Positions 48-62,809 of a DNA stretch of 64,000 bases are shown in pieces; position 1 is the first letter of the stretch, and the number at the start of each line of letters is the position of its first letter. Below the pieces are notes generated by a model. That model had not been told where the DNA came from. It did not search any database and was given only the letters and a program-made list of their open reading frames with translations. Location: positions 4,544,001 to 4,608,000 of the forward strand of contig CBDCTK010000002.1 of the NCBI GenBank assembly GCA_965222225.1. Reading direction: 5' to 3'. The position numbers and the translations under genes were made by a program. This DNA is from Candidatus Poribacteria bacterium (lineage in GTDB: Bacteria; Poribacteria; WGA-4E; JAJDTR01).

Positions 48-149
48 AGGATCTCCATCGCACGGGATTTGCTATCGGGATTTGCTATCGCCTTCGCTAT
101 CCGCTCAGTTGAACCCTCGTTGTTCACTCAGTTAATCGCTTCCTTGATT
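48..149 (+). repeat. Nested array of 38-bp micro-element (2 split copies plus 1 full copy) in a degenerate REP
   Basis: Left halves 48-63 and 64-76, full unit 77-114, right halves 115-137 and 138-149. Followed by REP-like GCGGTGTACACTCGAC. Confidence 0.8.
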
Positions 150-251
150 GCGGTGTACACTCGACGACTGCGGCCCAAGAAAGAAACTGAGTTTTCAAGA
201 AAAAACTCGGTTTCGTCGTATGAAAATAGATTTTGCTTTACTGTTCGACGA

Positions 252-4332: not shown

Positions 4333-4399
4333 GTAGGCAGGGATCAAGCAAGATCAAGGGAGTGAATAATGACCGCGATAGAGATCTTCTTGCCCTGCC
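4333..4399 (-). repeat. GTAG-type REP hairpin interrupted by 38-bp micro-element
   Basis: GTAGGCAGG (4333-4341), partial unit 4342-4351, full unit 4352-4389, then TTGCCCTGCC. Removing the insert gives GTAGGCAGG[GC]TTGCCCTGCC. Confidence 0.8.
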
Positions 4400-4439: not shown

Positions 4440-4490
4440 AGGGATTGAAGCGTAGAAACGGGAATTAAACTACCCTACCACGAACCTTTA

Positions 4491-4730
4491 GAGCCTGATT
4501 GAATAATCGGTGGCAAAGCCATTTTTGGTCATTTGTGGCAAGTTTTTTCATGTTTTCATTGTTGGCTGCTACATACCTGTGGGATTACTATCGCACGGGA
4601 TTTGCTATGGAGTTCTATCGCCTTCCTTATCCTGTCAGTTGATCGGTCACTATCCGTTCCCTTGATCGTTATCCGCTCGTTTGATCGGAGTGCGCACCCT
4701 ACGAGAAATGGTGCGCGGTGCCCACCCTAC
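4491..4730 (+). mobile_element. IS5-like MITE copy (left end only) with nested 38-bp units and REPs
   Basis: TTA followed by GAGCCTGATTGAATAATCGGTGGCAAAGCCATTTTTGG, matching copies at 26381 and 31233. Nested units 4581-4686; intact REP 4710-4730; right TIR not found. Confidence 0.7.
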
Positions 4731-4849: not shown

Positions 4850-5980
4850 ATGAATCGAGTTGAATCGCTTTACATCCATGTGCCCTTCTGTGCCACGAAG
4901 TGCTACTACTGCGCTTTTAATACGTACGCCTTCCACAAGGAACAGGCACACCATTATCTTGAAGCGTTGCGAACCGAGATGGAACTCTACCGTCTTGATT
5001 CCGACGGATTAAAAACGGTTTTCATCGGAGGCGGAACTCCATCAATTCTGTCCGTGGAATCGTTGGAACGGTTGTTCGAGCATTTGCACGCCGTTTTTGG
5101 GATCGAGGCAGCAGCAGAAATCACCGTCGAATGTAATCCCGGGACCGTAGATCGCCAGAAACTAGAGGTAATGCGTTCTGGAGGGGTGAATCGCTTGAGT
5201 TTCGGGATACAGGCGATGGACGATGCTACACTGCGAGAGATCGGACGGATTCACACGGTGGACGAAGCAGTCCAAAGTTATGACCTCGCACGCGGAGTCG
5301 GGTTCGACAACATCAACCTCGATCTGATATTTGCGCTGCCCAACCAAACGGTTGAGGAGTGGAAAGCTTGTCTTAACGAGGTGATGGCACTCCAGCCGGA
5401 ACACGTCTCAGCGTACAATCTGATGATTGAGGAGGGAACCGTTTTCTATGAGTCAATGCGAACGGGAAAACTTCGGCGGCTTTCTGATGAGGTTGAAGCC
5501 AAAATGTATCACGTCACCATTGACACGTTAGCCGACTACGGCTATCAACACTATGAGATTTCCAGCTTTTCCAAGCCGTGTTGTGCCGCGAAACATAATC
5601 TGGTATACTGGGACAATCAGTCATATATCGGACTAGGACCAGGTGCGTGTGGGTATATCAACGGGGTGCGTTACTCCAATATCCGTGGTGTTCAGGATTA
5701 TATTGAGTCCCTTAAACAGGGCAGAAAACCGATTGCAGATTCCGAGCAATTGACCGGGCGAGATGAAAAGGCGGAAACAGTCATTCTCGGTCTTCGGAAA
5801 CGAGACGGGATTCGGGAAGAGGAATATCAAAGGCGATTCGGCGAGTCGATTAACGATGAATTCGAGGATGTTCTCGACAAATGGATTGGCATGAATCTGT
5901 TGGAGTGGGCAAACGACTATCTCCGGTTAACTAAGCGAGGGCTTTTCCTAGCCAATGAGGTCTTCGTAGATTTCCTGTAG
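4850..5980 (+). CDS. hemW: Radical SAM heme chaperone HemW (HemN-like)
   Basis: LYIHVPFCATKCYYCAF (CxxxCxxC), GGGTPS, HYEISSF, HNLVYW. Confidence 0.9.
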   Translation: MNRVESLYIHVPFCATKCYYCAFNTYAFHKEQAHHYLEALRTEMELYRLDSDGLKTVFIGGGTPSILSVESLERLFEHLHAVFGIEAAAEITVECNPGTVDRQKLEVMRSGGVNRLSFGIQAMDDATLREIGRIHTVDEAVQSYDLARGVGFDNINLDLIFALPNQTVEEWKACLNEVMALQPEHVSAYNLMIEEGTVFYESMRTGKLRRLSDEVEAKMYHVTIDTLADYGYQHYEISSFSKPCCAAKHNLVYWDNQSYIGLGPGACGYINGVRYSNIRGVQDYIESLKQGRKPIADSEQLTGRDEKAETVILGLRKRDGIREEEYQRRFGESINDEFEDVLDKWIGMNLLEWANDYLRLTKRGLFLANEVFVDFL

Positions 5981-9946: not shown

Positions 9947-10423
9947 ATGCCAACTACCTACGAAGGGAACCTAATCGGTACCAATCTCAGAATCGGAATC
10001 GTTGTCAGCCGGTTTAACGGCTTTATAACCACCAAATTACTTGACGGCGCCTTAGATTCGCTAAAGCGGCACGGTGTGAACCTTGAGGATGTCGACGTGT
10101 TTTGGACGCCGGGATCTTTCGAGATCCCAGCTACCGCAAAGCGCCTCGCCGAAAAGGGGAGATATGATGCGATTGTGTGCCTTGGCGCGGTTATCCGGGG
10201 AGCGACACCCCATTTCGACTACGTCGCCAATGAGAGCGCGAAAGGGATTGCTCAGGTTGGCCTGAATACGGGAGTCCCTGCAATCTACGGCGTGATTACG
10301 ACGGATACCATCGAACAGGCGATCGAGCGTGCCGGGACAAAGGCAGGGAACAAGGGGGCAGAGGCGGCGGTCACCGCGATTGAGATGGCAAATCTGTATC
10401 GGCAGATTGACGAGGTAGACTGA
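9947..10423 (+). CDS. ribH: 6,7-dimethyl-8-ribityllumazine synthase
   Basis: [34 protein letters not shown]. Confidence 0.97.
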
Positions 10424-12786: not shown

Positions 12787-14348
12787 GAACCTTTCTGCTG
12801 TCATGCGTCGTCATATTTATCAACTTCTTTATTTACCGGTCACGCATCCCTCAGTATTACGATGTCGCTTCACATCTCTACTACGTCGTGATGATTCTTG
12901 CCGCCAGATATGATGCGCGGCTTGGGCAGCGAATCCTGCTGACACTCACGACAACAGCCAACTGGTTGTTTGTCCTCCGCCATATCAATCAACAGGCGCA
13001 TTGGGTTGTCGCCTCGGCGGCAGTGGCGACGTTGTATCCCTTTATCGCCTATTTCATCGTGCGAACAATCAGACAACTTAATGCACAGCGCCTCACAACC
13101 GAGCGGCAGATTGGTCGGATAAATGCGGCGAACTCGGATCTTGAGAAGCGTATCCGCGATCAATCCACCCTGTTCGAGGTTAGCGAAGCCGCTAGCGCCG
13201 ATATTGAACTGGAGGAATTGTTTCAGCGGGTAATACGGATTCTCGCAGATCGATTGGGCATTTATCGTGGTACGCTGCGGCTGGAGAAGAATGGCGAGTT
13301 GGTAAAGTGCGCCGAAGCCATCTTAGGTCTAACTTCGGCGGAGATTAAGCGCGGTACCGACAGTCAGATTGACGAAATCCAGCAAAACGTATTATCCTCC
13401 GGAGAAGCGATTGGCGTGCCTCATTCTCGCAAACCGCTAAAACGGATGGAGCTCCCCAAAGCGTGGTCTGTTCAATCCAAAGATCGTATCGCATTCTGGT
13501 GCATCCCGCTGATTGTCGATGAAAAGGTTGTGGGAACACTTGCCATTGACAAGGGATCGGACAAGTTCGCCACGGGAGATGAGGTTCGAATTCTCACGAT
13601 AATTGCCTCCATCTTGGCTCAACGGGTTAAGATTCAGCAGATGATAGATGCCTTGGTTCAGTCGGAGAGACTGGTGACGCTGGGAAAGTTGGCTGCGACC
13701 GTTGCGCACGAGGTCAGGAATCCGTTGGGCGGAATCCGTGGCGCTAGCCAATTGCTCCAGATGACCGATGGTGACAATGAATCCAATGGCGAGATACACG
13801 AATACACAAATGTGATTATCAAGGAAGTAGATCGTCTGAACCGTGTGATTGAGCAGCTTTTGGCTTTTGGCAATCCGCATACGCTCACGTTTGAACCACA
13901 CGGCATTCAGGTATTGATTGATGACAGCCTTTCGATTTGCGAACCGGAGTTCAGTCAAAACCGTATCCGCGTAGATTTCGAACACGATGAAAGTTGCCCG
14001 CTTGTGCCGATTAACACCGACGGACTAACACAGGTTTTCCTGAACCTGTTTCGCAATGCGATTGAGTCAATGGAAAACGGCGGCGTTTTGTCTGTCCGAA
14101 CGTCGTACGATGCGGCACAGGGAGCGGTTCATGTCCGTATCCAAGACACCGGGCGCGGCATCTCTCCGCAACTAGCCTCCCAACTGTTTGATCCCTTCTA
14201 CACAACGAAGCAGAAGGGCACCGGCTTGGGACTTTCAATCAGTCAACAGATTGTCGAGGAGCACGATGGCACGATTGAAGTCGATGTAACCCAACCTCAA
14301 GGGACGGCGTTTGTTATTACACTACCGGCACAGGTTGATAAGGCGTGA
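12783..14348 (+). CDS. Membrane sensor histidine kinase with GAF domain (NtrB-like)
   Basis: N-terminal TM helices, GAF (CIPLIVDEKVVGTL), H-box AHEVRNPL, N box NLFRNA, DTGRG, FYTTK, GTGLGL. Confidence 0.92.
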   Translation: MRTFLLSCVVIFINFFIYRSRIPQYYDVASHLYYVVMILAARYDARLGQRILLTLTTTANWLFVLRHINQQAHWVVASAAVATLYPFIAYFIVRTIRQLNAQRLTTERQIGRINAANSDLEKRIRDQSTLFEVSEAASADIELEELFQRVIRILADRLGIYRGTLRLEKNGELVKCAEAILGLTSAEIKRGTDSQIDEIQQNVLSSGEAIGVPHSRKPLKRMELPKAWSVQSKDRIAFWCIPLIVDEKVVGTLAIDKGSDKFATGDEVRILTIIASILAQRVKIQQMIDALVQSERLVTLGKLAATVAHEVRNPLGGIRGASQLLQMTDGDNESNGEIHEYTNVIIKEVDRLNRVIEQLLAFGNPHTLTFEPHGIQVLIDDSLSICEPEFSQNRIRVDFEHDESCPLVPINTDGLTQVFLNLFRNAIESMENGGVLSVRTSYDAAQGAVHVRIQDTGRGISPQLASQLFDPFYTTKQKGTGLGLSISQQIVEEHDGTIEVDVTQPQGTAFVITLPAQVDKA

Positions 14349-14383: not shown

Positions 14384-15859
14384 ATGCCCATAAAAACATC
14401 TATGGAACACTCAATTCTAATCGCCGATGATGACGACAGCATCCGGTTTACATTAACTAGACTTCTTGAGAAGACGGGATATCTCGTGCACGCTGCGCGC
14501 AATGGGAGTGAGACACTTGCCTGCCTTGACGCGGAACCGATAGATGTTGTCCTTCTCGACATCAGAATGCCGGACGCTGACGGATTAGAGTTAATCGAAG
14601 ATATCCAAGAGATTAATAGTACGGCTTCGATTATTGTCATGACTGCCCACGGCACCACAGAAACAGCGATAAAGGCAGCCAAACGCCGCGCCTACAATTA
14701 TTTCACAAAACCGTTCGATAATGATGTCGTCGTGTCGATGGTGTCCCGTGCAGCGAATGCGGCACGCCAAGCGAAGGCGTCCGTGGAAGCGGATACTAAA
14801 GCAGAAAAGGGGGATGGCGAACCACAACAACACGCCGACGCGAAAGAGACGCGACTAGTGGGTGAAAGCCCGGCTATGCATGAGGTGTATCTCGTTATCG
14901 GACGCGCGGCGGTTAGCGACGAAACTGTCCTCATTATGGGAGAGAGTGGAACGGGAAAAGAACTGGTTGCCCGGGCAATTCACGAAAATAGCGGTAGAGC
15001 AGACAACGAATTTGTTGTCGTTGACTGTAGCGCGATTCCACCGACTTTAATCGAAAGCGCGCTTTTCGGGCATGTTCGGGGTGCTTATACCGGTGCGGAG
15101 GTGGCACGCCAAGGGAAGTTTGAACAGGCTAACCGAGGCACCATTTTTCTTGATGAAGTTGGAGAACTGCCAATCGAGGTGCAGATGAAGTTGCTGCGTG
15201 TTCTTCAGGAGCGGGAGGTTGAACCTGTTGGATCCAATGAAACACGTCAAGTCGATGTCCGCGTCGTTGCGGCTACGAATCGACAACTGCAGCAATCTAT
15301 CCAGGAGAGCAGCTTTCGAAGAGATTTGTATTATCGGCTTAATATCATCCCCATCTATCTGCCGCCTCTGCGTGAGCGCAAAACGGATATTCCCGACCTG
15401 ATTGACTTTTTCATTTCTCGGTTCGCGGAGGAATACGCACAGCCCAAAGCGACGATTTCGTCCGAAGCGTTCAAGCGGCTTATGGCTTATGATTGGCCCG
15501 GAAACATCCGGGAACTTGAGAATACGCTTAAGCGAGCGCTAGTGTTGTGCTCGGGCCGCGTACTCTTACCGGAGCATTTTCCACAGTTTGTCGAAGGGGA
15601 AATTCCTTGGTCAGCCTTGGAAGGATCGACGCTTGAGGGACAACTGCGCATACTTCTGAATAAGTGGGTACGTCAAAACCTTGACTCTGGCGAATCCGAG
15701 GGTGAACTTTATTCCAAAATACGCGCGATTTTCGAGAAGCCGCTGTTCGAAAGTGTTCTTAAGCAAACCGGCTGGAATCGGAGTAAAGCGGCAGACATTT
15801 TGGGAATAAACCGAAATACGCTGCATTCCAAAATGGATGAACATGGTATTAAACACTAG
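14384..15859 (+). CDS. Sigma54-dependent response regulator (NtrC family)
   Basis: Receiver domain (ADDD, DIRMP), GESGTGKE, GAYTGA, FLDEVGE, WPGNIREL, Fis HTH. Alternative start at 14402. Confidence 0.95.
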   Translation: MPIKTSMEHSILIADDDDSIRFTLTRLLEKTGYLVHAARNGSETLACLDAEPIDVVLLDIRMPDADGLELIEDIQEINSTASIIVMTAHGTTETAIKAAKRRAYNYFTKPFDNDVVVSMVSRAANAARQAKASVEADTKAEKGDGEPQQHADAKETRLVGESPAMHEVYLVIGRAAVSDETVLIMGESGTGKELVARAIHENSGRADNEFVVVDCSAIPPTLIESALFGHVRGAYTGAEVARQGKFEQANRGTIFLDEVGELPIEVQMKLLRVLQEREVEPVGSNETRQVDVRVVAATNRQLQQSIQESSFRRDLYYRLNIIPIYLPPLRERKTDIPDLIDFFISRFAEEYAQPKATISSEAFKRLMAYDWPGNIRELENTLKRALVLCSGRVLLPEHFPQFVEGEIPWSALEGSTLEGQLRILLNKWVRQNLDSGESEGELYSKIRAIFEKPLFESVLKQTGWNRSKAADILGINRNTLHSKMDEHGIKH

Positions 15860-15948: not shown

Positions 15949-16245
15949 ATGGACATCGGAAAGGTCATCGGTACAGTTGTGGCAACCCGAAAGGACGCTA
16001 GCCTGAATGGGACTCGGCTCTTGGTTGTGCAGCCCCTTGACGGGAATGGTGAGTCCACAGGGAAACCAATCGTCGCGACAGACACTCATTTCCAAGCGGG
16101 TCGTGGAGACACTATCTATATGGTTACGGGCGGAGACGCGGTTGGCGTGTTACCGGGTCGCAAGATGCCTGTCGACGCGGCTATTGTCGGGATTGTTGAT
16201 TCGATTAGCCATGCCGAGGGACTGCCCGGTAACGAGGAGACGTAA
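15949..16245 (+). CDS. eutN: EutN/CcmL microcompartment vertex protein
   Basis: GKVIGTVVATRK, LLVVQP, PVDAAIVGIVD. Confidence 0.92.
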   Translation: MDIGKVIGTVVATRKDASLNGTRLLVVQPLDGNGESTGKPIVATDTHFQAGRGDTIYMVTGGDAVGVLPGRKMPVDAAIVGIVDSISHAEGLPGNEET

Positions 16246-16247
16246 GC

Positions 16248-16571
16248 GTGTACATTGCCAAGGTCGTCGGGAAAGTGGTGTCGGTCATCAAACATGCGGC
16301 GTATGAAAATCGAACGCTGTTGCTCGTGCAGCCACTGAGCCTAAAGTCTCAGCTTGTTAGAAAGCCCACTATCGCTGTCGATTATGTCGGGGCGGGGGAA
16401 GGCGATGTCGTGCTTGTTGGCGCGGGTCCAGGGACGGCTGAAGAGGTTTTCGGAATCCAAAATGCTCCGATACGCGAATTGGTGATGGGGATTATCGATC
16501 GGTTTGATGTGTCTGCCGATGTTGAAGTAAACGCAGGTGACACGATTGAGCATCGACCTATGTCCAGCTAG
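16248..16571 (+). CDS. eutN: EutN/CcmL microcompartment vertex protein
   Basis: AKVVGKVVSVIK, LLLVQP, AVDYVGAGEGDVVLV, MGIID. Confidence 0.92.
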   Translation: MYIAKVVGKVVSVIKHAAYENRTLLLVQPLSLKSQLVRKPTIAVDYVGAGEGDVVLVGAGPGTAEEVFGIQNAPIRELVMGIIDRFDVSADVEVNAGDTIEHRPMSS

Positions 16572-26280: not shown

Positions 26281-26360
26281 GGCGGGGCAAGAAGATCTCT
26301 ATCGCGGTCACTACAGGATCTTCTATCGCCTTCGCTATTCGCTCAGTTGATCCCCGGCTA
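26281..26360 (+). repeat. REP hairpin interrupted by 38-bp units
   Basis: GGCGGGGCAA, partial unit 26291-26314, full unit 26315-26352, then CCCGGCTA. Confidence 0.78.
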
Positions 26361-26380: not shown

Positions 26381-26618
26381 GAGCCTGATTGAATAATCGG
26401 TAGCAAAGCCATTTTTGGTCATTTGAAGACACGATTTTTCATGTTGTTATTGTTGCCTGCTACGTACCTGTGGGATCCCTACGAGATTTCTATCGCGGTG
26501 GGATCTTCTATCGCACTCGCTATCTGCTCGCTTGATCCTATTCGGTCACTTGATCACTCGTTATCCACTCGCTTGATCGCAGTGCGCACCCTACAAACTG
26601 TACTTTTCAAACAGGCTC
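26381..26618 (+). mobile_element. IS5-like MITE (238 bp) with triple-nested 38-bp units
   Basis: TIRs GAGCCTGATTGAA / TTCAAACAGGCTC; flanks TTA and TTG; nested units 26472-26578. Confidence 0.82.
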
Positions 26619-31232: not shown

Positions 31233-31433
31233 GAGCCTGTTTGAATAAGCGGGAGCAAAGCCATTTTTGATCATTTGTAGGAAGTTTTTTCATGTTTTTA
31301 TTGTTGCCAGCTACGTACTGTGGGATCCCTATCGCACTCGTTATCCACTCGCTTGAGGGGATCTCTATCGCGCTCGTAATCCACTCGCTTGATCGCAGTG
31401 CACACCCTACAAATGTACTTTTCAAACAGGCTC
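31233..31433 (+). mobile_element. IS5-like MITE (201 bp), TTA target duplication
   Basis: Perfect 13-bp TIRs GAGCCTGTTTGAA / TTCAAACAGGCTC; TTA at 31230-31232 and 31434-31436; two 38-bp-family units at 31322-31394. Confidence 0.88.
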
Positions 31434-34541: not shown

Positions 34542-34665
34542 TCGTGCATTTCCTTAATTGCTCAAATATATACGAACCTTTCGGTTGGCAAAGTAGAACG
34601 TGCCGCTGGCTTTGTTCAGAATGTGCTAAAAGCACCTTTCGTGGCGATACAGTATTAGATTGAAT

Positions 34666-34750
34666 TAGCCAAAGTTGCCACTTTTGTAGCACGATTTGTC
34701 AGATTGTACATGTGATGCGCAAACTGACAGTTTGCGCTACGAATCATATC
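34666..34750 (+). repeat. Dispersed repeat with REP-like hairpin (inverted copy at about 39875-39958)
   Basis: AAGTTGCCACTTTTGTAGCACGAT...GCGCAAACTGACAGTTTGCGCTAC. Confidence 0.7.
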
Positions 34751-36268: not shown

Positions 36269-36399
36269 ATGCGTACTGCCTTCCTAACGGGTATTCAAAT
36301 GTGCGCTGTTCGTGGATTCCCCAAACGAATCCTCGTATCGGGATTCATAACGTGGCACTCAGTAGACATTGTTCTCTTCGCATTGGCGTTTTGCTTTAC

Positions 36400-36720
36400 G
36401 GGCAAAAGTGCCAAAAAATTCTCCCGCGCTGTTTCCATTGGTAACAATCAGGAATTCCTCTCTGGTGAAAAGGTTGAACAGGCGATTGCCGACAGCTTCC
36501 GAAGGCTTATCCAAAATGCGATTATCTGCTGGAACTATCTGTATCTCCCTCAGAAGATTACCGAAGCCGAGGGCGAAGAAAAGCGAAAGGAATTACTCAC
36601 AGCGGTCCGGAATGGCTCCATGGCGGCGTGGGGCACGTCAATCCGCATGGCGCGTATGATTTCTCAGATGAAAAACTATCGGATTCGGTCGGATGATACG
36701 CACCTAAGATCCTGGCAAGA
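36400..36720 (+). mobile_element. Tn3-family transposase C-terminal remnant
   Basis: KFSRAVSIGNNQEF...RLIQNAIICWNYLYL...NGSMAAW, then INPHGAYDFS in a shifted frame. Confidence 0.75.
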
Positions 36721-36933
36721 AAGACGTATTCTAGGGGAGGATGTGTGGCCAAATAGCAGGTTCTAAGGGGTGGGTCAAAATCCTATGGCAGTTTTCGTGC
36801 ATTTGTTTAACTTGACCGAACATTGTCTGGAGTGATTCATTGAGTCGTCATACTTACACTCAACGACGAAATCCATTTCTTCCACCTGGCGTTTTGCGGG
36901 ATTTGAGGTAATCGCTTTTTCGTCGTCACAGGG

Positions 36934-39680: not shown

Positions 39681-39737
39681 GGCGGGGCAAGGGAATCTCT
39701 ATCGCCCTCGCTGTCCGCTCGCTTGATCTCCGCCTAC
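39681..39737 (+). repeat. REP hairpin with one clean 38-bp insertion
   Basis: GGCGGGGCAA, unit 39691-39728, then TCCGCCTAC. Confidence 0.82.
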
Positions 39738-39800: not shown

Positions 39801-39958
39801 TAACCCAAGTTGCCACTTACAAGATTTTAGGCGTGTAGACACTGTTCTTAATTGAGAATTATTCATTATTCACGGATATTTCGTAGCGCAAACTGTCAGT
39901 TCGCGCACTCACAGGCACAATCTAACAGATCGTGCTACAAAGGTGACAACTTAGGTTA
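39801..39958. mobile_element. Putative MITE with about 17-bp imperfect TIRs
   Basis: TAACCCAAGTTGCCACT versus reverse-complemented right end TAACCTAAGTTGTCACC; right half repeated at 34666. Confidence 0.55.
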
Positions 39959-40308
39959 AGTAAGAATGCCGAATATAGAGCCGATTCCTTTGACGCTTTT
40001 CAATTGCAAACCTATACAAATATGTGGCAATATATAGGTATTGCCAATAGGTGGAAAATTTAACTATGGATAAACGCAAGCGATTTACGCTCAAGCAACT
40101 CGACACAGGGGCATCACCGCAAATTACGGGGAACTATCGGAGACTTCATGGACGCTCGGTCGTCCAATGGACGTCATAATTCGTTAATTGAGGATGATTT
40201 GCCACGCTTCGAAGACCGACACCGTCAAGCCATCGAGTTTCTCCACAGACATTTCGTGTTCAAGGCTGGCTATATTCACTTTTGACACGAATCTCCATCT
40301 GAGGTCTT

Positions 40309-43269: not shown

Positions 43270-43312
43270 AAGCTATCTATCGCACTCGCTAATCGCTCGT
43301 TTAATCTCCTAC
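43270..43312 (+). repeat. Degenerate 38-bp unit abutting REP end
   Basis: CTATCGCACTCGCTAATCGCTCGTTTAATC followed by TCCTAC. Confidence 0.65.
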
Positions 43313-61603: not shown

Positions 61604-61762
61604 GAGCCGGTATGAATAATAAGTGGCAAAGCCGTTTTTGGGCATTTGAGTTGCTATTGCCTGTCGCCCCGCTGGGACTTTTGATGCGTAGTGAATCGGC
61701 GTTTCTACACACCTATCGCCCCGCTGGGGCTTTCAAAGGTTGGTGTGCAGTGCGCACTCTAC
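61604..61762 (+). mobile_element. Diverged MITE copy lacking 38-bp insertions
   Basis: TAA stop followed by GAGCCGGTATGAATAATAAGTGGCAAAGCCGTTTTTGG; internal CGCCCCGCTGGGGC hairpin and uninterrupted GGTGTGCAGTGCGCACTCTAC. Confidence 0.65.
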
Positions 61763-62280: not shown

Positions 62281-62313
62281 AAAAAGGCTCTCAATCAATT
62301 GAGAGCCTTTTTT
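62281..62313 (+). terminator. Bidirectional intrinsic terminator
   Basis: AAAAAGGCTCTCAAT-CA-ATTGAGAGCCTTTTTT. Confidence 0.88.
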
Positions 62314-62329
62314 GTGCCTGAGAGTCGAA

Positions 62330-62602
62330 GAGGATATCCGCCGAGACGCCGGTCATCTACAATTCTTCAGGGAAGGAAAGTGTGTACAGAATCTACAATT
62401 GCAGGACGTTCATCCGGGGATGCGCGAGGACGACCGTATTCAGCTCGACGCTTTTGATGACGCGATTATCACGGAAACAGATCGCGATTGGCTTCAGGAG
62501 ACAGCCTTAGACACATGGGTTTTGATGGAGGCATGCAACGAATCTGCTCAAACCCGGGAGCGGGTAGATGTTCAAGCGTTTCGGGCGAGGTTGATAGATT
62601 AA
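62330..62602 (+). pseudogene. Probable Gfo/Idh/MocA C-terminal remnant
   Basis: QLDAFDDAI...ALDTWVLMEACNESAQTRERV resembles the family C-terminus; no N-terminal domain; begins right after a terminator. Confidence 0.45.
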
Positions 62603-62717
62603 GGGATAGGATTGAGGAAGTTCGGATGGTTCTTATCATCCGGACGATAGGATTTAAGGTAACTTCAACTTAACATCCAAGAAGAGCAGGGAGCAGCCGG
62701 AACAAACTAGAGGAAAA

Positions 62718-62809
62718 GGCTGGTGGGATCTCTATCCGGATCTGTTCAGTCGTTTGATTGCAGGGGAATTCTATCGCCCTCCTTAATCAGTCGGTTGATC
62801 GCACCCTAC
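62718..62809 (+). repeat. One REP carrying two separate 38-bp-family insertions
   Basis: GGCTGGT, unit 62725-62759, GCA, unit 62763-62800, then GCACCCTAC. Confidence 0.78.

Follow-up and report, generated by a model that had tools for sequence, protein, structure and literature searches.

A GTAG-type REP on the minus strand of a Candidatus Poribacteria contig, at 62722-62809 of the window (the whole 64-kb stretch of DNA analyzed here), is interrupted by two copies of a 37-38-nt element. These inserts are very probably copies of a non-coding, non-autonomous mobile element, in which the hairpin of the GATCAA strand is kept by selection through compensatory changes, and which enters REP-type hairpins and older copies of itself with its 5′ end toward GTAG, just before a G, replacing 2-4 target bases and duplicating none. 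The feature is larger than the doubly interrupted REP described in the initial annotation, as it comprises a whole family of elements with unusually clear junction rules.

The arrangement of two insertions in one REP was confirmed at its proposed position (Table 1). Rejoining the REP pieces against the empty form of the family bore out that the two insertions use different sites, differ in sequence and each cost the REP a few bases. The loss of 2 nt proposed for the second site stands, while that at the site next to GTAG is 3 nt instead of the 4 nt first suggested: the G at 62763 is best given to the REP, because a 3-nt loss is usual at this site, the boundary being ambiguous by one base. The short spacer between the insertions, which had been suggested to be REP sequence, fits as a 4-nt remnant into the 21-nt family form, of which 53 distinct empty copies were counted in the window and at least 130 further loci (hereafter the surveyed set). 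In addition, the 5 nts found 3′ of the split REP correspond to a flank often carried by the host REP family. The 37-nt copy scores 54 bits with a covariance model, of whose 47 building sequences it is itself one. In the 35-nt copy, a 5′ half is joined directly to a tail-like piece of the 8-nt type and a 3′ remnant; this is the sole such case found, and a chimera of this kind would possibly result if a third insertion nested here and a deletion between short homologies came after it. The gap that holds the filled REP lies between a 96-codon ORF without a Pfam or NCBIfam match and a DUF4178 gene. The ORF upstream of the filled REP (62312-62602) matches only the 3′ end of a longer orthologous gene (locus L081, 3235-4313) and is therefore probably a truncated remnant.

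Table 1. Pieces of the doubly filled REP, other element copies and empty REPs of the host family (positions in the window)
Feature	Position	Strand	Remarks
Host REP, 5′ part	62801..62809	-	GTAG tag (62809-62806) and first 5 stem nt
Complete 37-nt element, hairpin fully paired	62764..62800	-	takes the place of 3 REP nt
REP remnant between the two insertions, 4 nt	62760..62763	-	
35-nt element copy, chimeric	62725..62759	-	takes the place of 2 REP nt
REP stem 3′ end and 5 nt of family flank	62717..62724	-	stem end at 62724-62722
REP of the host family with two elements	31322..31410	-	second site, newer element in front of older
Three elements, each nested in the next	4581..4702	-	second site of REP
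Nested three-element array	26472..26594	-	second site of REP
Nested three-element array	48..165	-	adjoins a decayed REP half
Element within an older element	26292..26352	-	second REP family
Lone element	39692..39728	-	second REP family
Element in a second-family REP	4352..4388	+	only plus-strand copy of the window; still the GTAG strand of its REP
Lone element	43270..43306	-	2 nt 3′ of GTAG tag
Empty paralogous REP, same family as host	61742..61762	-	2 differences from the commonest matching form
Empty paralogous REP, same family as host	4710..4730	-	

The host repeat has the features of a GTAG REP: the GTAG tag lies 5′ of a short palindrome, copies are numerous and extragenic, and a cognate RAYT gene lies between them. 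This gene (L051, 15522-16094; NF047646, 175.6 bits for a cut-off of 80) is flanked by the host REP family, and its named relatives are mostly cyanobacterial transposases and RAYTs. The REPs that flank it are themselves empty, and downstream of the gene its 3′ end is partly repeated in tandem, together with the REP pair (L051, 15409-16710). The two empty copies in the window to which the filled REP had been compared belong, as proposed, to the same family. The 61.7-kb copy, 1 kb away, is a paralogue, one of the 53 distinct empty copies, and its closeness is incidental. Two IS200-like genes (L051, 18099-18593, and L010, 9242-9700) are flanked by a non-GTAG hairpin family, which is a frequent target of the element and is dispersed like a REP, with 63 empty copies. 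In another GTAG family, an empty REP doublet occurs twice in the window, in opposite orientations (34665-34743 and 39880-39959), and a copy of this doublet in L031 carries an inserted element. A MITE of 200-280 nts, which ends in short inverted repeats, duplicates 3 target nt (TTA/TAA) and has the REP inside, occupies 31233-31433 and 26381-26618 of the window; its left ends were also seen near 4490 and 61603, and it occurs in L102 as well. Because the REP sits inside the MITE, which we take to be IS5-like from the resemblance of its ends, filled REPs are spread along with it.

A scan of GTDB genomes with a 30-letter pattern, with no base pairing imposed, recovered at least 130 loci in 13 assemblies, and all of the 130 matches listed belong to Ca. 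Poribacteria. When up to 2 mismatches were allowed at fixed positions, 374 distinct element copies were counted in the 1.66 Mb (about 1.3 Mb non-redundant) of the surveyed set, against none once the bases of this sequence had been shuffled; densities in the fetched loci are inflated, since these loci were chosen around matches. Two of them correspond as orthologues to stretches of the window, with identities mostly of 79-92%, which would place the window itself in Poribacteria. In the window, 10 copies are full-length and others are fragmentary, and the element 5′ ends number 15. Searches with the element DNA returned nothing meaningful from plasmids (matches inspected in part), phages and E. 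coli genomes, and the best match of one plasmid search lies in coding-looking DNA. Rfam gave no match above the gathering score in the window, only two sub-threshold matches at chance level, and scans for tRNAs, promoters and terminators yielded nothing relevant. The element's description was not met in the literature searched, in which subscription papers were thinly covered and supplements lay outside the scope.

Several arrangements observed in the loci are worth recording. In L066 (OZ240245.1), three tail-to-tail element doublets (10001-10079, 13795-13873 and 14656-14734) share the same 11-nt spacer, which recurs at 5899-5909 in the same gene run; they comprise six different stem variants and occupy gaps whose neighboring genes run in the same direction, and two of the doublets lie just 5′ of ribosome-binding sites. 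In L054 (10030-10690), a 330-nt tandem repeat is present as three units with an element at the same REP site in each, two of these elements being identical and one different. The window also contains a Tn3-family transposase fragment (36269-36766), an adjacent pair of EutN/CcmL microcompartment vertex genes (15949-16571) and many PhyH and laminin-G paralogues.

Read on the GATCAA strand, the element consists of a hairpin (positions 1-30) and a variable, pyrimidine-ended tail (positions 31-37/38). From its base upward, the fold has a stem of 3 bp, an AA/GC loop and two 2-bp stems separated by a tandem GA/GA, and it is closed by a G-R-A-Y-A loop. Of the stem positions, eight are variable and change in a complementary manner as the pairs 7:23, 8:22, 11:19 and 12:18; the same pairs come out as the top four by mutual information (in the order 11:19, 8:22, 7:23, 12:18) among 247 distinct 30-mers retrieved with no pairing constraint. 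All four pairs are kept in 306 of the 374 copies in the surveyed set; these fully paired copies display 67 stem variants, many of which are common to several genomes. Among 1870 stem cells, 1595 are Watson-Crick, 186 G-T, 29 A-C and 60 other, and the excess of G-T over A-C cells designates the GATCAA strand as the folded one. For 47 hand-picked copies, 97.8% of the cells are paired, a value that none of 500 shuffles reached and to which all slid controls were inferior, and RNAalifold applied to the same copies returned the structure given by covariation. The AA/GC loop (positions 5-6/24-25) is nearly invariant between its paired stems. The contexts G-GA-C and A-GA-T are absent from the 306 fully paired copies, as expected if a sheared G-A geometry is needed; the context limits of this geometry apply to RNA and DNA alike. 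The covarying fold is the minimum-energy RNA fold for some copies (-6.9 and -6.4 kcal/mol). Modeled as DNA it is barely stable, and energy alone sets no copy above its shuffles. The evidence for the fold is thus covariation, not energy. In four genomes, most copies carry a T-rich tail instead of the usual one (L018, L021, L023, L026, L034, L040, L043, L066, L077, L082 and L113).

An empty target was matched for 130 of the 255 copies with a standard tail. The loss amounts to 2 nt in 51 cases, 3 nt in 55, 4 nt in 12 and another number in 12 (2-4 nt in 118 of the 130 resolved copies), and an overlap was seen at a single one of the 130 junctions. The first lost base, at +1, is a G in 85 of 88 distinct contexts (1-5 nts lost), and in this local motif C is all but missing from positions -3 and -2 (2 of 88 contexts for each). 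GCG, GA, GC and GCA dominate among the lost bases; GCG is the commonest, with the tail joined directly after it. The first G can be assigned to the element or to the target, because the element also begins with G. Filled and empty sites could be paired through flanks of 22+22 nts in 34 cases. Self-insertion is frequent: of the 374 copies, 89 interrupt an older copy, in 88 cases at one of six preferred positions, 23 stand immediately before an older copy and 18 are inserted in the antisense strand of one. At the commonest self-site, tail length goes with the extent of the loss, as 7-nt tails accompany the loss of 3 nt (23 times, plus one 6-nt tail) and 8-nt tails that of 2 nt (7 times), with no crossed case. 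A looser count with sites mixed gives 49 and 21 matched against 3 and 7 crossed combinations (70 of 80 matched).

The start of the element lies within 20 nts 3′ of a GTAG in 108 of the 374 copies, compared to 17 and 13 in opposite-strand controls. GTAG stands directly 5′ of the element in 22 of 374, upstream positions being otherwise variable, and it is missing from the 80 nts upstream in 173 of 374, many of which are nested or lie in other repeats. The element lands in several REP families, including GTAG and non-GTAG repeats. Across four repeat families, strand use is 77 versus 0; a further family with 12 versus 0 was left out of this total, its copies being often tagged at both ends. The host REP family, which has the same 8 bases on both strands, is informative in this respect, as the GTAG strand is used 13 times and the other never. 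Exceptions to the strand rule are 6 insertions that three other families carry on their iREP strand and the 18 copies in the antisense of older ones. A scan for guide-like pairing between the element and its target flanks gave weak signals only, confounded by target family. Counts for the C-rich replication strand, as given by an unreliable skew proxy (rho 0.19, p 0.14), are 91 versus 41 for elements and similar for empty REPs (79 versus 48, p 0.30). An outermost-site parser failed to classify 110 of 306 sites, among which decayed REPs and mis-trimmed arrays were numerous, and it was kept out of the evidence; the sites that it rejoined fold only slightly better than random ones (-5.3 versus -4.7 kcal/mol). 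Over 13 scar patterns, 2 doubtful excision scars were found against 178 intact REPs and 290 intact elements. The near-absence of such scars, together with the lack of target duplication, leads us to infer that the element spreads by copying in rather than by excision.

In the host family, 22 distinct copies from 8 genomes are filled at the site next to GTAG, with 18 different arm sequences and a usual loss of 3 nt; the second site is filled in 4 copies, and both sites are filled together only at 62722-62809. The mean distance between copies is 6.7 within an array versus 6.0 within a genome and 6.5 between genomes. Since each site is used singly elsewhere, the two copies differ and array-mates are no closer to each other than random pairs, two separate insertions occurred rather than one that was duplicated. 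This part of the proposed repeated active integration is upheld; neither the word "active" nor the placing of both events at this locus is. Four copies share the 5′ arm and loop of the insertion at 62764-62800, and 3 of them occupy the same REP site, compared to 22 of 475 element 5′ halves overall. These 3 copies are found in three different genomes, in the window and in OZ244829.1 and OZ242354.1, which represent two other species. Because 3 of the 4 same-arm copies share their REP site across genomes, this insertion probably predates the arrival of the REP at its present location: it would have travelled next to GTAG inside an already filled REP, the second insertion probably being added later. 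The orthologous region in L081 holds unrelated intergenic DNA with an empty REP in the opposite orientation and hence, its intergenic content being different, supplies no pre-insertion allele.

As to how the element moves, the reading that we favor, although we place it a little below an even prospect, is that it parasitizes the machinery of its host REPs through a Y1 HUH enzyme with RAYT-type nicking. A RAYT or an IS200-like TnpA would nick single-stranded REP DNA, and the free 3′-OH on the GTAG side would be joined to the fixed 5′ end of the element or would prime its copying. The variable pyrimidine-rich 3′ tail would then be joined to the target 2-4 nts further on, with loss of the skipped bases, and repetition at one spot would build head-on and nested arrays. 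This route is favored because the host REPs flank a RAYT gene, another target family flanks IS200-like genes, the biochemistry of TnpA-REP fits and the element carries an AA/GC loop. According to the consulted part of PMC8266576, E. coli TnpA-REP acts on single-stranded REP and not on iREP and leaves a 3′-OH. It cuts 5′ or 3′ of the REP and performs strand transfer (PMC8266576, PMC3333891, PMC3479197). It also needs the AA/GC mismatch, paired as C:A and A:G, as described in portions of PMC3333891 and PMC3479197, and the loop of the element at 5-6/24-25 is the same 2x2 loop. Against the involvement of a RAYT stand the lack of a GTAG in the element itself, the use of several REP families with different cognate enzymes, the insertions on the iREP strand (6) and in antisense (18 of 374), the 173 of 374 copies without GTAG in the 80 nts upstream, and a covarying fold that is barely stable as DNA in the model. 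Furthermore, we know of no base loss in HUH strand transfer. The Pfam scan found no RAYT or reverse transcriptase among the 57 window proteins; no gene flanked by the element was noticed in the approximately 1.3 Mb of fetched loci, and no enzyme gene could be tied to it. Cleavage by the RAYTs characterized in the excerpts of PMC8266576 and PMC3333891 takes place at CT, and also at CA, rather than on either side of a G.

The alternative to be taken most seriously, possible if doubtful, is that of a micro-retroelement. The GAUCAA strand would be a small RNA, to which a reverse transcriptase with its gene elsewhere would bind; the REP would receive offset nicks, the opposite strand would prime cDNA synthesis at the 3′ tail, and the offset would remove the 2-3 bases. 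The near-absence of excision scars agrees with such a route, as do the RNA-like build (2-bp stems, tandem GA, G-R-A-Y-A loop and frequent G-U), the coincidence of the covarying fold with the minimum-energy RNA fold for some copies, and the sloppy pyrimidine-rich 3′ end, T-rich in four genomes. An RNA route has reportedly been proposed for SDR elements. In co-directional gaps, the element strand is mostly the mRNA sense strand (86 versus 53), but this bias is no different from that of empty REPs (65 versus 49, p 0.44), and the choice of REPs and of one strand would need a separate reason. In addition, the ORFs of the fetched loci contain no reverse transcriptase motif, a weak objection as it comes from motif screens over about 1.3 Mb in 13 genomes. 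Much less probable is an unrelated nuclease or recombinase that would insert the element at purine-rich sites before GCG or GA in any tolerated intergenic hairpin, without a RAYT, and would hit REPs through their abundance. Its appeal lies in the strong local motif and in a range of targets that extends from GTAG to non-GTAG repeats and to the element's own antisense strand, but it does not account for the exclusive use of the GTAG strand in a host REP with the same 8 bases on both strands. Nor was any insertion found in terminator-like hairpins: the 339 rejoined sites include none of them, while 29 occur empty, a small control that could reflect selection.

Two further possibilities deserve very little weight. 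Cut-and-paste in the manner of IS200/IS605, in which a single-stranded circle is excised and re-inserted, would suit a strand-specific hairpin element in genomes with IS200-like genes, but it is highly improbable: it predicts REPs or elements short of 2-3 bases at the hot spots, for which 2 doubtful cases stand against 468 intact copies, and target bases are lost. The near-absence of excision scars largely refutes it. The least credible view, to which we grant next to nothing, is that no mobile element exists and that local duplication, slippage, BIME-like shuffling of repeats or faulty assembly produced the copies. Their clustering in arrays might suggest as much; however, array neighbors are no more alike than random pairs, split REP stems and older elements rejoin exactly but for 2-4 bases, and the element occurs in 13 independent assemblies. 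The 34 filled and empty pairs with 22+22-nt flanks refute both local duplication and artefact. Adenine mutagenesis from one template, as in DGRs, was rejected since the variable sites change in complementary pairs, and CRISPR-type acquisition was rejected since the inserts are homologous and nothing is duplicated.

At 37 nts and without a gene, the element is among the smallest mobile elements seen. Extrapolation from 15 5′ ends per 64 kb suggests that the genome total may be on the order of a thousand, and with such numbers the element would contribute substantially to the way intergenic DNA changes in Poribacteria. The spread of REPs and the movement of repeats below 40 nts, SDRs among them, are described as open questions in the consulted portions of PMC8266576 and PMC13756078. 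The family offers material for testing them: empty targets are known for hundreds of junctions, the folded strand, the strand rule, the cut before G and the 2-4-nt loss are defined, tail length is tied to that loss, and a candidate enzyme, the L051 RAYT, is in hand together with its cognate REP. As a tool, too, an enzyme able to place a short structured stretch in a hairpin, on one particular strand, would be of interest. It is conceivable, though on the unlikely side, that the family represents a previously undescribed class of micro-mobile elements, second-order parasites of the REP-RAYT system, spread by a copy-in reaction new to bacteria (a nick beside the REP, templated addition of 37-38 nts and rejoining 2-3 nts further on, the element's tail length fixing the loss), and that this reaction might also be the one by which SDRs move.

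Among known systems, the element shares with REPs, REPINs and BIMEs its extragenic location, high copy number, single-strand hairpin and AA/GC mismatch, the latter as in E. coli REPs. It differs from them in having no GTAG, GTGG or CGTC tag, in splitting REPs mid-stem and nesting in itself, and in being mostly single, the 374 copies including 3 tail-to-tail doublets, all in L066. With IS200/IS605 elements it has in common a mismatched hairpin, strand specificity and the absence of target duplication; it has, however, no transposase, one hairpin only and a loss of target bases, and no donor joints were found. Several insertion sequences also choose REPs as targets, namely IS1397, ISKpn1, ISPsy8, IS621, ISPa11 and ISPpu9/10 (PMC1525189, in part). 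According to the same partial source, these carry a transposase, insert at one fixed point and often produce a 2-6-base duplication, whereas the element is non-coding, uses many points and deletes bases. Unlike such insertion sequences and MITEs, it also has neither terminal inverted repeats, its ends being unlike, nor a target duplication.

The closest known kind is the SDR of cyanobacteria, and the element can be described as an SDR-like family of micro-elements that parasitizes REPs in Poribacteria, set apart by its size, host and insertion mode. SDR elements measure about 21-27 nts and insert within their own copies, their structure being kept by compensatory changes, and SDR4, SDR5 and SDR6 have one particular fold in common. 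They are reportedly known from Nostocaceae as the small dispersed repeats SDR1-8 of Elhai et al. 2008 (Genome Res 18:1484). Searches of four cyanobacterial or Chloroflexota plasmid stretches and one Cupriavidus stretch gave no match to the element better than E 0.066, no SDR copy was recognized in 50 kb of Nostoc plasmid, and neither SDRs nor the element were found beside related RAYTs in cyanobacterial and Chloroflexota plasmids. Both kinds are very small, non-coding, dispersed, apparently mobile and inserted in other repeats, and the element likewise nests in itself and keeps its structure by compensatory changes. In contrast, it measures 37-38 nts rather than about 21-27 nts, it resides in Ca. 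Poribacteria (all 130 matches listed) instead of Nostocaceae, and it targets RAYT-type REPs and itself. The 21-nt SDR5 inserts into another repeat, HIP1, after GCG, as stated in the consulted parts of PMC4390886, PMC5861425 and PMC13756078, and in the available text of PMC4390886 this insertion is described as precise. The commonest bases lost to the Poribacteria element are also GCG, with its tail joined directly after them, but its insertion removes 2-4 target bases (118 of 130 resolved copies), the boundary at the first G being ambiguous by one base.
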